Shown here: piece after piece, positions 4,388 to 60,074 of the stretch
Position numbering within the stretch: the stretch's first letter is position 1
Layout of the letters: each line of letters starts with the position of its first letter
Assembly (NCBI GenBank): GCA_965112155.1
Contig: OZ218098.1
Origin: Podarcis liolepis
Taxonomy: Eukaryota
DNA: 64,000 bases
Direction: 5' to 3' (one strand)
Notes under the pieces: model-generated
The model's input: the letters and a program-made list of their open reading frames with translations, nothing else
Told to the model about the DNA's origin: nothing
Databases searched by the model: none
Translations under genes and position numbers: made by a program

Positions 4388-4749
4388 GGGATGCGGGTGG
4401 CGCTGTGGGTAAAACCTCAGTGCCTAGGACCTGCCGATCGTATGGTCGGCGGTTCGAATCCCTGCAGCAGGGTGAGCTCCCGTCCTTCGGTCCCAGCTCC
4501 TGCCCACCTAGCAGTTCGAAAGCACCCCTAAGTGCAAGTAGATAAATAGGTACCGCTTTATAGCGGGAAGGTAAACGGCGTTTCCGTGTGCTGCGCTGGT
4601 GCTGGCTCGCCAGAGCAGCTTCGTCACGCTGGCCACGTGACCCGGAAGTGTCTCCGGACAGCGCTGGCTCCCGACCTCTTAAGTGAGATGAGTGCACAAC
4701 CTTAGAGTCGGACACGACTGGCCCGTACGGGCAGGGGTACCTTTACCTT
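4388..4749 (+). mobile_element. Sauria SINE, full length
   Basis: tRNA-like head (gggtggcgctgtgg A-box, ggttcgaatcc B-box), core aagtgcaagtagataaataggtacc, BovB-like tail agagtcggacacgact, (accttt)n end; 13-bp TSD taacttgctttta at 4375-4387 and 4750-4762. Confidence 0.93.
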
Positions 4750-12512: not shown

Positions 12513-12575
12513 TCCGCTGAATGTGCTAGAATCTTCTGGAATGTGTTCTTAAACACTAATGATGCCTCTTGTTTG

Positions 12576-13198
12576 TGTGATGGCCTGGGATTCCGAGTCT
12601 GAGAGCGATCCGGAGGAATCCCAGCCGGCACAGGAGTCCCCGCCTCCAGGGCCGGCTGAACTGGGGCAAGGCCTAGATGCTGAGGAAACTCAAGAGCAGG
12701 CACCAGGTGAAACCATTCTGGCCCCAGAGGTGCTGGATGACTCAGTGGCCACAGGTGAGCCTCCTCCAGGGCCCAGTAACCCTTCGGCCTCTCCTGATCT
12801 GCAGAGGCTTAGGGCAGAGAGGCGAAGGGAACTGGTTGCCCCCAGGAGGAGTGCTCGCCTTAAGGCCAGAGGAGGCGGGGCTCCTGGGGGTCGGGACCGC
12901 CCCTGACCTTAGAAGAGGATAAAAGCCCAGTCAGGCCGGCCCCAGGTTGCGGGAGCAACGTCATTGTTGGCTACGGACCTACCTGTGTTCTTGATCCCTG
13001 CTCGGCTTCCTGTTCCTGACTATCCAGTACTCCGGTTCCCTGCTCGGCCTCCTGTTCCCGACCATCCGGCGTTCCTGTTACCTGCTCCGCTTTCTGTTCC
13101 AGCGTTCCTGTTCCCCGCCCGGCTCTCTGCATCGGACCTCGTCCCTCTTCGTGTGGACTCTGCTACACTCACGGTACCTTACCCCCGGGACCAACATA
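12576..13198 (+). mobile_element. Solo LTR (Gypsy-like), young, GC-rich
   Basis: Starts TGTG, ends ..ccaacata; perfect 5-bp TSD gtttg (12571-12575, 13199-13203); TATA-like GATAAAAG at 12918-12925 after GC boxes; pyrimidine-rich repeated downstream half. Confidence 0.85.
12580..12906 (+). CDS. Hypothetical LTR U3-encoded 108-aa acidic/Pro-rich protein with C-terminal RRSARLKA motif
   Basis: Uninterrupted ATG..TGA from LTR base 5 to 12 nt before the TATA-like box; expression not shown. Confidence 0.4.
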   Translation: MAWDSESESDPEESQPAQESPPPGPAELGQGLDAEETQEQAPGETILAPEVLDDSVATGEPPPGPSNPSASPDLQRLRAERRRELVAPRRSARLKARGGGAPGGRDRP

Positions 13199-13339
13199 GT
13201 TTGTCTGGATGGGGGATAAAGAAAGGTATGAGGGTGGTCAGGATTTCCCACACTACCTGTTCTTCTCCTTTAGGACAGATCTACGTATATGCAACTGTAT
13301 GTAGGAAACCCTACTTTGTAATGGTTCCTCCAAAAGTGT

Positions 13340-43522: not shown

Positions 43523-44312
43523 TAATAATAATAATAATAATAATTTATTATTTGTACCCCGCCCATCTGGCTGGGTTTCCCCAGCCACTCTGGGCGGCTT
43601 CCACAGAAACCAAAAAACACTAAAATATCATACATTAAAAGCTTCCCTGAATAGGGCCGCCTTAAGATGTTTTCTGAATGTCAGGTAGTTGTCCATCACC
43701 TTGACATCCGATGGGAGGGCATTCCACAGGGCGGGCGCCACCACCGAAAAGGCCCTCTGCCTGGTTCCCTGTAGCTTCGCTTCTCGCAATGAGGGAACCG
43801 CCAGAAGGCCCTCGGCGCTGGACCTCAGTGTCCGGGCAGAACGATGGGGGTGGAGACGCTCCTTCAGGTATACTGGGCCGAAGCCGTTTAGGGCTTTAAA
43901 GGTCAACACCAACACTTTGAATTGTGCTCGGAAACGTACTGGGAGCCAATGTAGGTCTTTCAAGACCGGTGTTATGTGGTCTCGGCGGCCGCCCCCAGTC
44001 ACCAGTCTAGCTGCCGCATTCTGGATTAGTTGTAGTTTCCGAGTCACCTTCAAAGGTAGCCCCACGTAGAGCGCATTGCAGTAGTCCAAGCGGGAGATAA
44101 CTAGAGCATGCACCACTCTGGCCAGACAGTCAGCGGGCAGGTAGGGTCTCAGCCTGCGTACCAGGTGGAGTTGGTAGACAGCTGCCCTGGATACAGAATT
44201 GACCTGTGCCTCCATGGACAGCTGTGAGTCCAAAATGACTCCCAGGCTACGCACCTGGTCCTTCAGGGGCACAGTTACCCCATTCAGGACCAGGGAGTCC
44301 TCCACACACCTC
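43523..44312 (-). mobile_element. Young L2-clade LINE, 5'-truncated
   Basis: Open ORF 43628-44305 with VRSLGVILD, SRLDYCNAL, KLQLIQNAAARL, HITPVLKDLHWLPV, RAFSVVAPALWNALP; (TTA)n tail; 9-bp TSD ctaacagaa (43514-43522, 44313-44321). Confidence 0.93.
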
Positions 44313-44758
44313 CTAACAGAAGTAGGACCCCATTTGTCTGAGTGGCCCCTTGCCTGGATCTCCGCACTTCACCCCAGCCTGCAGGTCAGGGCTCACATAC
44401 AAACACGATGCCCTGTAGGCTGATCACAAAAAGCACAACAGAGAGCTCAGAACCCTTTACCAGGTGTGCAAGTTTTCTCACTCCAGGGAGGTTGGCTTCC
44501 ATTGGTGATCCCCAACCTATACAGAGTAGCTATGACTTATGATTCCCACCCTATCTAGTCTGCAGTTGGCCAGTCTCAATCTAGGAAGGCTTCCCTGGTC
44601 TCATTGTGCTCTCTTTCTGGGAGGCTATAGGACTGCATGGAGCAAGCCCTATAAGGCAAAAAGACTTGCACTCAGTGAAATCACCTGCTGCTGGCTGGAC
44701 TGACCCCACCTGAGTAGAGCACCTTAAGAAGAAAACTCTTGAGAAAATGGAGGACAGG

Positions 44759-53683: not shown

Positions 53684-53914
53684 AATAAAAAAAATTCCTT
53701 CCAGTAGCACCTTAAAGACCAACTAAGTTAGTTCTTGGTATGAGCTTTCGTGTGCATGCACACTTCTTCAGATACACAAGTGTGTATCTTCAGATACACA
53801 AGTGTGCATGCACACGAAAGCTCATACCAAGAACTAACTTAGTTGGTCTTTAAGGTGCTACTGGAAGGAATTTTTTTATTTTGACTATGGCAGACCAACA
53901 CGGCTACCTACCTG
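53684..53914 (+). mobile_element. Penelope-like (PLE) pLTR-derived palindromic insertion, copy 1
   Basis: ~80-bp inverted arms, unpaired 3' tail ..gactatggcagaccaacacggctacc; 12-bp flanking duplication taactttttaat (53675-53686, 53915-53926). Confidence 0.85.
53738..53775 (-). ncRNA. Minimal type I hammerhead ribozyme motif (PLE type)
   Basis: GUAU-CUGAAGA-A-GUGUGCAUGCACAC-GAAA-GC-UC-AUAC: catalytic boxes, stem I GUAU/AUAC, stem II, minimal stem III. Confidence 0.75.
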
Positions 53915-54949: not shown

Positions 54950-57532
54950 ATCAAATAGATTTTTATTGCATTAGCCGTGAGGCCATAGCATGATATACAT
55001 TGAAATAACAACATAAAATGGGGATGGGAAGATAAAGGTAGATATCGTCCTGGGCGATTACTTAAAGAAAGAAAAGAAAAGAAACTGCTGAGGCTGGAGG
55101 AGGGCCGTTAAAGGGTCCTTCAGCTCCTCAGATACGTCCTAACTCGATTGTCCTTGTACAATAAGGCTACTTGGAACTTCGTTCAGTTGTGCGGCGTATC
55201 GACTGCAGCTGTGGTGTTAAGGAAGAAGTTAGTGCCGCTTTCCTCTTCATCACACTAAGCAGGAAGTTAGCTGTCATCTCGGTAATCCAACAATCAGAAT
55301 CCTGCAAAAAGAGGGACACTATCCAAGGCTGGATTGGGAGATGAAGCTTATTCACGAGGGGAGTTAAAAACCGAGATCTTTCATCTGTCCAGTTGGGACA
55401 GAAGAGCATTACATGTTCCATAGTCTCCAGGGTCGTGTCATTACAGGTGCATGTTCTGTTTGCGATGGGAACTCTGGAATAACGACCCGACAGAACTGCT
55501 GTAGGAAAACAGTTGAGACGGGCACAGGTAAAGGCCCTACGCTTAGCCTCCGAAGAAATTGTGAAGCAGTATAGAGGGATCCCTTCAGGGGGTGGAATAG
55601 CTAGGGCTAGGCCTGAACACGGTCCTCTTGCATAGGAAGCTGTGTTAGAGAAGTCAAGTTGCTGTAGTTTCTTTTTGATTAGAGGTAGGGCCGCCGGGCT
55701 GATACACTCTAAGTTGAGAACAGTTTTACAATTCAAATTGAGAAGAGAGCGGAATTTGAGGTTAATTGTAGTTTTCCAAGGGGAATTATGAATGTCTCTT
55801 AGGATCAGATTGGAAAAACCGCCTCTAATTCGAGCATCCGATGCTAATAGGTGGAAGCTGTAGGAAATGGCTTGACTCCATGCTCGTTTGACAATTGAGG
55901 GCTGGGCAAACTCAAGTCGTAGGGCTGCACCTGAGACACATCTCGGGACGCCGGAAAGAGATCTCAGAAACATATGAAGTGGGCGATCCAAGTTACCTGA
56001 TATTGCTGTAGTCCATACTTCGCATCCATATAATAATTTAGGGACAACTTTGGCATTAAATATTTGAATTGCTGCTGGAAGATGTTTGCCGCCCTTCTGG
56101 TGATAAAATCGGACAATGGCGTTAGAAGTCATGGTTGCAGCGAGAAAGGCAGATTGTAGATGGGTGGTCCAGGAGAGATTACAAGTGAATATTATGCCTA
56201 GATATTTAAAGGCTTTTACCTTTTCTAAGTAGCCACCTGTGATCTTAAGCGGCTCCAACTTGAGTTTGCGGGAACGAGTGAAGTGGAGGACTTTCGATTT
56301 TTTATAATTAATGTTAAGAGCTTCCGTCTTACAATAGGCGATAAATGCATTAACTGCATTTGCTAGGTCCGCAACTGTTCTGGATAAGATGACGGCATCA
56401 TCAGCATAGAAAAGGGAAGCAACGGGGTGGCCTGCTAAGTGAGGAGGATACTTAGATGCTAGCTTCAAAGTGGAAATTGCATCGTGAAGATAGAGATTAA
56501 ACAATAAAGGGGCCAAGAGACAACCTTATCGGACGCCCTTGGCCGTTGGAAATGGAGTAGTGAGGGAGCCGTTGGGACCACTTCGGACACGGGCTGTGGT
56601 GTTTGAATAAAGGGAAATAATTAGGGAGAGGAGGTGCGGATCAATTCCCAAATGGGCAAGTTTGGACCATAATCTCTGCCTAGGAAGGGAATCAAAGGCG
56701 GCCTCCAGGTCCATGAAAGCGGCAAATAGGTGGCCTTGCCTTGGAGCAGTGTATTTACTGGCAAGGTGATAAAGAGTTAGACAGTGGTCCATGGTTGACG
56801 CTGACTTTCGGAAACCAATCTGTTCCAGCGGTAGAATGTTCCTCTCCTGGACCCATGAGAGAAGTTCCTCCAATAAAACAGCGGCAAATATTTTCCCCGG
56901 GATGGATAATAAACTGATGGGGCGATAGTTCCTAGGGATGTTTGGCTGGCCGCCTTTGAAGATCGGACCTATTATAGCTTCTCTCCAGGAGTCGGGGATG
57001 TCTAGGGCGGAGGAGATAGCGGAGAATACAGGAGTCAGGTGTTCGCTCCACCAAATAGGATCAGTCAGGAAAAGGTCCAACGGGACCATGTGTGGGCTGG
57101 GGGCCTTATTCCTTCGCATTGACATTATGATGTTGAAAATGCGAGTTGAGGTAAAGTTTATTGAGGAAGTGGGACTAAGAGAGCAGGAACAGAGGTCCGA
57201 CGGGGACTGAGGGAGATCTGTAAGAAGATTTGAAGAAGCGAAACTGGTTGAATAATAGGCAATCCATTCATCAGCGGAAATCTGGGTAGCTGGATTGAAT
57301 GGTGCCGAAGGTCTGACTAAGCACCAGAAGGAGCGGGAGTCATGCCTTTCTACAGCCGAACGAAGAGTGGACCAAGCCTCAAGGATGTGCTGCTGTTTCT
57401 TGCAATGAATCATGTTTCTGTATGTCCTTTTAATATCTATGAGCTTTGCACGTGTTTGGGGGTCGTTGGAAAATTTAATGATTCTGACCATTTTCCTAAT
57501 TCGCCTTCTTAGGGCTTTACATTCCTTGTCAA
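54950..57532 (-). mobile_element. Non-LTR retrotransposon, RTEX-like, 5'-truncated
   Basis: RT motifs NYRPISLL, EQIGFR, DLEAAFDS, GVR*GC, FYADD, FKYLG; C-terminal C-x-C..H..C knuckle (RTCTCNDTTLETMEHVMLFC); 3' UTR with stem-loop and AATAAA; clade assignment less certain than class. Confidence 0.85.
55167..57530 (-). pseudogene. LINE ORF2 (RT + Zn knuckle) with one in-frame nonsense codon; endonuclease domain missing
   Basis: ORFs 56526-57491 and 55167-56516 are in the same frame, separated by TAA at 56526-56528 within GVR(Q)GCLLAP. Confidence 0.9.
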
Positions 57533-57654
57533 TGTGCGGTTTCCATTTACTTTAATATAGCTCACATTAATATAGCTCACATTAAAAAGACTGCACTGGA
57601 AAAACCTGGGACTCTGAGCGTTTCTGCTAAAAGTGCCGCGAGGAATTCGCAACA

Positions 57655-58586: not shown

Positions 58587-59579
58587 TATTTATTTATTTG
58601 TTTTGCCTCAGAACTATTGTTTCAATGTGAAAGCTTTAAAGTAGGTTGCTGCACATGTTTGATTTGTTAGGTTTATTTTGTTGCAATGTCACCAGAAGAT
58701 CGGCAGGGAGGTTGTGCGGGAAGAAATCTAATGAGGAGCCAAGCAACACATTATATTTGCATGGAGTAATAAGATGAACAATTTTATTTTTTGTATGTTA
58801 TCTACTGCTTGCAATAACCCCACATACTTTACTGCCTTTGAATGACAGTCACGGTTTGTATTCTGAGTTCATCTTTTTAAGAAAAAAATCTCATAGGAAC
58901 AGCCACAAGTAAAACCTACAACATTTTGTTGTTGTTGTTCTGAGCAGGAAATCTAAATTTTGAGTTGACAGTTTTTAATCCGCTGCTCCTGCAGCACTGC
59001 ATTAATTTGAGCGGTAATCCTAGCTGGATGGGAGGAAAACTTAATCCTCTCTCATTTACACCATTCCCTATAACCATGACACTGGAATAAAGCTTTCTAA
59101 GCATGAAACACTTTCCTGACAAATGCTACACATGAAGGAGACACACACAATGGGCCGAATCCAACAAAATCATAACCAGAATAGAACCATTGGAATCAAT
59201 GGACTTCCTTTGAAAAGGTGTGCTCTGACTTTTAAAAAGGTGTGACTTAGTTTATTGCAGCTCATATATGCAATATTTATTTAATACATCAATTGGTTTG
59301 AGGTTAGAGATTTCTGAACCACCCTTCATTCAAAATGATAAATGGCTATGATGGTAACAAATATAACAAAAACAAATCCCATAATACATAAAGAGTAAAA
59401 GCTAAAAGACATAAGCTAAAAACCAAAACACAAATGAAGATAAATAAAAATGCCTGGGTGAACTAGAATTCCTTACCCACATGCAAAAGACCTCAATCCT
59501 GACACCAGTCAAACCTTTCTATGAAGAATAAAAAAATTCCTTCCTGTAGCACCTTAAAGACCAACTAAGTTAGTTCTTG

Positions 59580-59617
59580 GTATAAGCTTTCGTGTGCATG
59601 CACACTTCTTCAGATAC
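59580..59617 (-). ncRNA. Minimal type I hammerhead ribozyme motif (PLE type)
   Basis: Mirror image of 59624-59661. Confidence 0.72.
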
Positions 59618-59623
59618 ACCTGT

Positions 59624-59661
59624 GTATCTGAAGAAGTGTGCATGCACACGAAAGCTTATAC
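59624..59661 (+). ncRNA. Minimal type I hammerhead ribozyme motif (PLE type)
   Basis: GUAU-CUGAAGA-A-GUGUGCAUGCACAC-GAAA-GC-UU-AUAC. Confidence 0.72.
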
Positions 59662-60074
59662 CAAGAACTAACTTAGTTGGTCTTTAAGGTGCTACAGGAA
59701 GGAATTTTTTTATTTTGACTATGGCAGACCAACACGGCTACCCATCTGTAACTTTCTATGAAGGGCATTGCAAAGTCAATAAGCCACGAGAGCAAAAGCC
59801 TTTTCTGAGATGCAAGCAGCAGCAATTGACTGCAGACTTTTAAGGCTGTTTTCCAAATGCAAGTGAAGACATAGTGCAGATTGGCAAGAAAGTAGCTCAC
59901 TTAGGACTCAGCTATACAGAAGCAAAGAAAACGTTTTAAGTGTGTTTTAAAGTGCAATATACAAATCTGACACTAGATGGAGATTGTAAGCTATGACAAA
60001 TACAATATATTTTTAAAAAACTTTTTTTAAAGCATTTTCACAGTGTTTTTATATGTGTGTAGATTCCACCTTAG

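Follow-up and report, generated by a model that had tools for sequence, protein, structure and literature searches.

A solo LTR with an open frame in its U3 region

The window, a stretch of 64,000 nucleotides from Podarcis liolepis (contig OZ218098.1), carried a long terminal repeat (LTR) whose U3 region contained an open reading frame; the features of this locus are given in Table 1. The repeat began with TGTG at 12576 and had GTTTG on either side, while internal element sequence was absent next to it, and it was therefore identified as a solo LTR. A genome search with this LTR returned 1,884 candidates, the best 40 scored of which were 99–100% identical; the closest copy showed 99.5% identity across 620 bases, which indicates that the insertion was recent. 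At its 3' terminus, this LTR read ..ACATA, where the relatives compared had ..GCACA. The solo LTR is a leftover of recombination, and its U3 frame is orphaned.

The frame opened at the fifth base of the LTR (TGTG-ATG) and its TGA stop ended at 12906, 12 nt upstream of the TATA-like box, within which ATAAAA starts at 12919. Its product passes from an acidic start, through a Pro-rich middle, to a basic end containing RRSARLKA, which was identical to the HMGN motif RRSARLSA at 7 of 8 positions; the RRSAR core was identical and one place differed. A first-pass annotation, made from the letters of the window alone, had described this acidic-to-basic frame, its spacing from the TATA-like box and the HMGN-like motif, and had attributed the LTR to a lizard Gypsy-like element. 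These descriptions were confirmed throughout (frame at 12580–12906, with its stop and spacing; motif at 12844–12867), the element being a Tf1/sushi-type chromovirus. The third Arg of RRSARLKA is predicted to be the arginine anchor, and the charged segment 5' of the motif is likely to be helical. A Pfam search of the U3 product produced no family at E<=1, the HMGN profile included, while the only region matched in a PDB sequence search was the chromodomain described below. A predicted complex of lizard H2A, H2B and tail residues 70–104 scored 0.02, the predictor being unvalidated for peptides, and so weighs on neither side.

Table 1. Features of the solo LTR and its borders, in positions of the window
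Feature	Position	Strand	Remarks
Left target-site duplication copy, GTTTG	12571..12575	+	5-bp; other element copies likewise have 5-bp duplications
Solo LTR, 623 bp, of a young Tf1/sushi-type chromovirus	12576..13198	+	Identified by genome search and flanking duplication
U3 reading frame, 108 aa	12580..12906	+	Equivalent to the last 108 aa of Gag-Pol in full-length copies
Acidic, Pro-rich linker	12580..12790	+	17 D/E, zero K/R; disorder predicted from composition
Charged segment DLQRLRAERRREL	12796..12834	+	5' of motif; squamate tails compared have a basic segment here
RRSARLKA, HMGN-type motif	12844..12867	+	aa 89-96 of the U3 frame
TATA-like box GATAAAAG	12918..12925	+	30 nt 5' of the predicted RNA start
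GCGGGAGCAA, complement of the primer-binding site	12949..12958	+	Predicted 5' end of element RNA; downstream of the ORF
Degenerate 42-nt repeats, about four (family D11)	12982..13140	+	In R/U5
Right target-site duplication copy, GTTTG	13199..13203	+	Identical, too, to the element's first five internal bases

Several other repeats were present in the window. A LINE reverse-transcriptase remnant, split by a stop, lay at 55167–57551 (-); two copies of one small element formed near-perfect palindromes at 59527–59714 and 53688–53877 (93-nt and 78-nt arms, respectively); and SINE-like repeats occurred at 4424, 10218, 31674, 57655 and 62959. A weak Pfam match to NFRKB at 43628–44368 (-) was rejected, as translation identified the region as a 3' fragment of LINE ORF2.

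The U3 frame is continuous with pol in full-length elements

Many LTR matches were found as pairs 5,005 bases apart. In seven of twelve full-length stretches examined, two of the seven belonging to one tandem array, an unbroken frame of 1,557–1,558 codons extended from Gag to the stop seen in the window. Of the remaining five, one had a stop inside integrase, three ended early around the junction and one was split by a nested insertion. Since one frame was continuous from Gag to this stop, the U3 ORF was identified, with near certainty, as the C-terminal tail of the Gag-Pol integrase (a frame of ~1,550 aa), situated behind the chromodomain. The first-pass annotation had raised the question of whether pol runs into the ORF, which it does in these seven stretches, and had preferred an accessory U3 protein comparable to Nef or Sag; that preference was not upheld, the ORF being instead the last 108 residues of Gag-Pol.

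A translated example (P0002) contained Gag, protease, reverse transcriptase (RT), RNase H, integrase, SH3 and chromodomain regions by Pfam, and no env. The chromodomain (PF00385, E = 3e-15, residues 1371–1418) aligned to HP1 with the cage aromatics kept, and about 20 residues, polypurine tract included, separated it from the 108 residues encoded by U3. Among 63 chromodomain-LTR junctions of the window's subfamily, 50 had an in-frame length and 13 differed in a G run; the pattern used to find junctions required an exact second G run, so copies altered there were uncounted. A second young subfamily and an older third subfamily also read through in frame, with in-frame indels of 18 and 30 nt.

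Eleven of the 63 junctions were located on one contig (G000:C20; 40 Mb, ~2.5% of the assembly), an excess that could reflect either targeting or retention in a low-recombination chromosome. The same contig, between 35.6 and 37.5 Mb, contained 20 copies (L073–L092), 99–100% identical, of a stretch with an older-subfamily LTR piece, representing an amplified segment. Elsewhere, a head-to-tail array of three elements with four shared LTRs was observed at G000:C2:104470374-104486009 (L041, L042), and the nested insertion at G000:C3:42835000-42844000 (L040) measured ~3 kb and contained a 610-aa frame on the opposite strand.

Distribution of the tail and its motif

Relatives were sought using the chromodomain plus tail, and these queries contained the motif, which favours its recovery. 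A Podarcis muralis polyprotein was 96% identical over the RT-chromodomain region, and Anolis carolinensis polyproteins (P0005 and P0006, representing clusters of 94 and 366 sequences) were 58% identical. In the Anolis polyproteins the Gly-Asp-Ser-Val-Met junction was shared, the acidic linker contained neither Lys nor Arg, and the end read RRSARIAAK; a third Anolis family (P0327) retained RRSARIAAK while the residues upstream differed, and the tail of P0203 ended in RRSARLAA. Between lacertid and Anolis tails, the alignable part was limited to 18 residues at the motif (E = 0.28), and the chance of RRSAR[LI] was about 0.004–0.008% per shuffled tail. Phylogenetic analysis of 41 RT-chromodomain rows with FastTree placed lacertid, Anolis, king cobra and P0219 sequences in one clade (support 100), inside a 28-row group of amphibian, fish and squamate sequences (support 99).

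The junction and the acidic linker also appeared in gene models of Rhineura, Salvator, Crotalus, Vipera and Naja; outside the genome searched (G000), Anolis and the snakes included, LTR borders were placed from protein only. Open squamate tails (lacertid, anole, amphisbaenian and snake) were 85–117 residues long and had the same charge layout in sequences that could not be aligned, while the complete tails compared had 7–12 Lys or Arg in their last 38 residues. All 16 acidic-type tails, which were picked by eye, combined an acidic middle with a basic or charged end. RRSxR[LI] was found in only six of these 16 (lacertid, Anolis and P0203; three independent groups), being absent from the Crotalus, Vipera, Ophiophagus, Rhineura and Salvator models and from P0219. 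Preservation of the motif across families was partial: it was kept in the lacertid and three Anolis families, while snake and amphisbaenian tails were without it. Its absence from several squamate tails means either that integration works without the motif, or that the gene models concerned have decayed.

Beyond these tails, the motif was seen in 0 of 71 complete chromovirus tails from metagenomes, mostly of one redundant family, and in 2 of 104 further tails, where 1.5 were expected; a general RRSxR rule for chromovirus tails was rejected on these grounds. One frog protein had RRSPRL within an Arg-rich tail (shuffle chance 0.8%), and a degenerate codon pattern for RRSAR[LI]AA-type sequences produced 3 matches, compared with 2 in the control. 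A genome search with P0183 for a second, snake-like family returned the same lacertid families, judging by frame lengths and places. Among 148 of the 149 rows from this search, 75 had open frames of at least 1,550 aa and 42 had frames of ~1,270 aa, possibly representing a subgroup in which gag and pol occupy different frames.

Other short basic elements were noted along the way. Two Salvator merianae sequences (P0329, P0101) had RQSSRL or CRSSWL directly after the presumed LTR start rather than near the end, possibly the motif at a different position. Two tails of the same layout, P0332 and P0105 (the latter from Rhineura), ended in RYSLRAR and SLRPKR, respectively, like GGYNLRPR of foamy-virus Gag; the shuffle chance of RYSLRAR in P0332 was 0.2%, for a likeness noticed after the fact. 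Cyprinid-type fish chromoviruses (P0226, P0229, P0231, P0237 and others) had PRPRGRPRR 3' of the chromodomain, which we take to resemble an AT-hook. Finally, a fragment neighbouring one copy (L135; G000:C20:13388600-13391700), which looks Copia-like, contained an acidic stretch followed by RRSTRSTKG, of the RRSxR type to which the first-pass annotation had referred.

It is the basic end, and not the motif, that is common to all complete squamate tails, and the same integrase tail might accordingly end in a nuclear import signal, or in a general binder of DNA or nucleosomal DNA, with its HMGN likeness incidental. Snake tails that end in Arg/Lys runs without RRSxR, and fish chromoviruses with PRPRGRPRR after the chromodomain, are in keeping with this; Arg-rich integrase ends can equally serve as import signals or DNA binders, and yeast retrotransposon integrases have C-terminal import signals. 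However, such a function leaves unexplained why Ser-Ala-Arg-[LI] is fixed across the lacertid and three Anolis families when neighbouring basic residues change, and the motif has Arg only, whereas classical import signals are Lys-centred. For these reasons the import or DNA-binding explanation is considered rather unlikely.

Predicted RNA start and transcription

In 6 of 6 loci tested (four distinct insertions), a 10-nt perfect complement of the primer site was found at LTR position 374. Self-priming is described for Tf1/sushi elements in the available text of a previous account (PMC6317226). The position of the complement places the predicted RNA start downstream of the U3 frame, so that only full-length RNA, in its 3' LTR, would allow the frame to be read. 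The frame of the solo LTR in the window, being upstream of its own predicted start, is predicted to lack expression from its own promoter.

This arrangement, and the continuity of the frame with pol, argue against a separate U3 protein that begins at its own ATG, whether through splicing, host read-through into solo LTRs or a protease cut, and acts as an HMGN-like chromatin peptide. Such a protein would be favoured by the context of the ATG (G at -3 and +4), by automated gene models that begin there (P0070, P0072), and by the 1,884 and 3,029 candidate LTR matches in the genome. RNA was assessed from the raw reads of four runs, possibly of another species, with 52–135 reads placed per run. In two bulk RNA runs, presumed sense-strand depth was 13–20 over most of the LTR (13–18 over U3) and 0–4 in the internal region, and about half of the placed reads continued into unlike sequence. 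While the greater depth over U3 would also suit a separate protein, the pattern fits solo LTRs within host transcripts plus a little full-length RNA; no splice joint into the U3 ATG was seen among the 52–135 reads per run, at this low depth. Moreover, the ATG belongs to the LTR terminus: the Sushi end motif TGTYANR, as given in the accessible part of its description (PMC3601003), agrees with it in 6 of its 7 positions, and in snake relatives Val-Val occupies the position of the lacertid ATG. A separately translated U3 protein is thus judged improbable.

A search for sequencing runs produced no RNA run among the matches listed. Two Anolis RefSeq proteins, P0031 (XP_062826420.1) and P0032 (XP_062825126.1), consisted of element polyprotein annotated as isoforms of PCBD2 and KCNQ5, which represents either exonisation or mis-annotation.

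Selection on the tail

In three subfamilies, the U3 frame was open in 56 of 56, 18 of 19 and 16 of 18 LTR copies, the 56-copy set being biased through its selection for likeness to the window; RRSARL was present in 55, 18 and 10 of these open frames, respectively, having been lost in 6 of 16 old-subfamily copies. When the window's tail was shuffled 200,000 times, RRSAR[LI] arose in 0.008% and RRSxR in 0.9% of cases. The rarity of RRSAR[LI] in shuffled tails, and the open frame in most LTR copies, show that frame and motif are more than chance.

Net pN/pS between subfamilies was 0.39, 0.47 and 0.56 for the tail (up to 14 copies per subfamily, without correction for transition bias), and the values between the two young subfamilies were 0.09 (integrase core) and 0.29 (chromodomain). 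Third codon positions accounted for 32 of the 60 sites that differed between subfamilies (p = 0.001), compared with 44 of the 123 private changes (Fisher p = 0.026). None of the McDonald-Kreitman-like counts reached significance (p = 0.056, 0.24 and 0.52), and pN/pS within the oldest subfamily was already 0.67. On ORF retention and the ratio of replacement to synonymous change, both proposed as checks in the first-pass annotation, most copies retained the frame, pN/pS between subfamilies was 0.39–0.56, and the McDonald-Kreitman-like counts lent no significant support. The tail is under moderate purifying selection, as expected for a flexible linker. Codons of the motif hardly varied between lacertid subfamilies, with few synonymous changes, which could also be explained by constraint on the promoter at the DNA level.

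The least probable explanation of all is that pol merely has no stop until U3, where sequence is kept for promoter function in DNA. In its favour, fish, frog and fungal chromoviruses commonly have short run-ins beyond the polypurine tract, stop codons are scarce in GC-rich DNA, and the motif block shows few synonymous changes. Counting against it are the excess at third positions, the in-frame indels, and open tails of 85–117 residues that have one charge layout in lacertid, anole, amphisbaenian and snake proteins without alignable sequence.

A proposed role for the integrase tail

Chromatin tethering, the role suggested by the first-pass annotation, is plausible for the tail. Specifically, we think it somewhat probable that RRSARL of the integrase tail holds the integration complex to the nucleosome at the H2A-H2B acidic patch, beside the HP1-like chromodomain. 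The tail would remain on integrase after processing, with its acidic linker of ~100 residues serving as a flexible arm; the HP1-like chromodomain, its aromatic cage intact, would read H3 methyl-lysine, while the motif arginines would dock in the acidic patch. Chromodomain and motif together would then provide a two-point capture of the nucleosome that helps or steers insertion.

Background for this proposal comes from the available text of published work. In cryo-EM, the segment of HMGN2 and HMGN5 visible in the acidic patch is RRSAR, whose last Arg is the anchor (PMC12487698), and yeast Dot5 binds nucleosomes through the same arginines of RRSARIAT (bioRxiv 10.64898/2026.01.14.699602). Foamy-virus Gag steers integration with an acidic-patch arginine anchor (PMC9040877, PMC6042332, PMC12125541); plant Copia elements choose their targets through the integrase C-terminus (PMC11735389); and recognition of H3 methyl-lysine is described for chromodomains in which all three aromatics are present (PMC3059260).

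More tentatively, a squamate-wide lineage may have built a two-point nucleosome reader from an HP1-like chromodomain and an LTR-encoded, HMGN-type arm, with anchors swapped between lineages (RRSAR, a foamy-virus-like YxLRxR or a plain basic helix), the anchor helping to set the insertion site. In the literature searched (supplements, most subscription papers and Repbase entries lay outside its scope), neither the squamate tail nor an acidic-patch or HMGN-type motif on the integrase of a retrotransposon was found described. If the two-point reader is real, no retrotransposon integrase with an acidic-patch anchor precedes it in that literature, and well over a thousand solo LTRs would each hold a ready-made, HMGN-like small ORF.

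An acidic-patch anchor on integrase bears on how vertebrate LTR retrotransposons find and hold chromatin. If correct, it would add a transposon integrase to the cases of acidic-patch mimicry known from herpesviruses and foamy-virus Gag, provide a vertebrate counterpart to the CR domain that plant centromeric elements encode in their LTRs, and make one stretch of DNA both promoter and protein-coding. The motif is short and has solved structures in other proteins, so the question is testable with a peptide and nucleosomes; should binding fail, what is left would be a structural trait of squamate chromoviruses that is modest, though well supported.

Comparison with known systems

The lizard element is a member of the Tf1/sushi (V-clade) chromoviruses of the Metaviridae, with which it shares the Gag-PR-RT-RH-IN order, a C-terminal integrase chromodomain and the lack of env; its RT-integrase groups with frog and fish elements. 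Also shared, going by the available text on the group (PMC6317226), are a self-priming site in place of a tRNA primer site and a 5-bp target duplication. Most of the fish, frog and fungal members compared either stop shortly after the chromodomain or continue as a basic, non-acidic extension, whereas the squamate clade has an extra tail of 85–117 residues, acidic and then basic, that fills U3.

HIV Nef and MMTV Sag resemble the lizard frame in that their coding overlaps the U3 of the 3' LTR; however, Nef and Sag are separate proteins from their own mRNAs, whereas the lizard frame is continuous with pol. With HMGN, tardigrade Dsup and yeast Dot5, which are described as having an RRSAR/RRSSR acidic-patch motif, the tail shares the RRSAR core within a low-complexity, charged chain, Anolis RRSARIAA matching Dot5 RRSARIAT at 7 of 8 positions. 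Unlike HMGN, it is part of a polyprotein rather than a free, small host protein, and has no HMGN Pfam match; the order is also opposite, as the acidic part lies after the motif in HMGN and before it in the lizard tail. Foamy-virus Gag, KSHV LANA and CMV IE1 likewise tether a mobile genome to chromatin by an arginine anchor in the acidic patch, but these anchors, in the available text of their descriptions (PMC9040877, PMC12125541), sit on Gag or herpesviral proteins rather than integrase, and are not paired with a chromodomain.

A parallel in coding layout is offered by plant CRM group A elements, as far as the available descriptions go, where the integrase frame extends into the 3' LTR as it does here; in those elements a CR motif replaces the chromodomain, priming is by tRNA-Met and the host is a plant, whereas the lizard element keeps its chromodomain, has a self-pairing primer and carries the HMGN-type motif. 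Coding run-in to the 3' LTR was thus already known from plant CRM elements, while the putative HMGN-type anchor on a retrotransposon integrase appears to be new in the literature searched.
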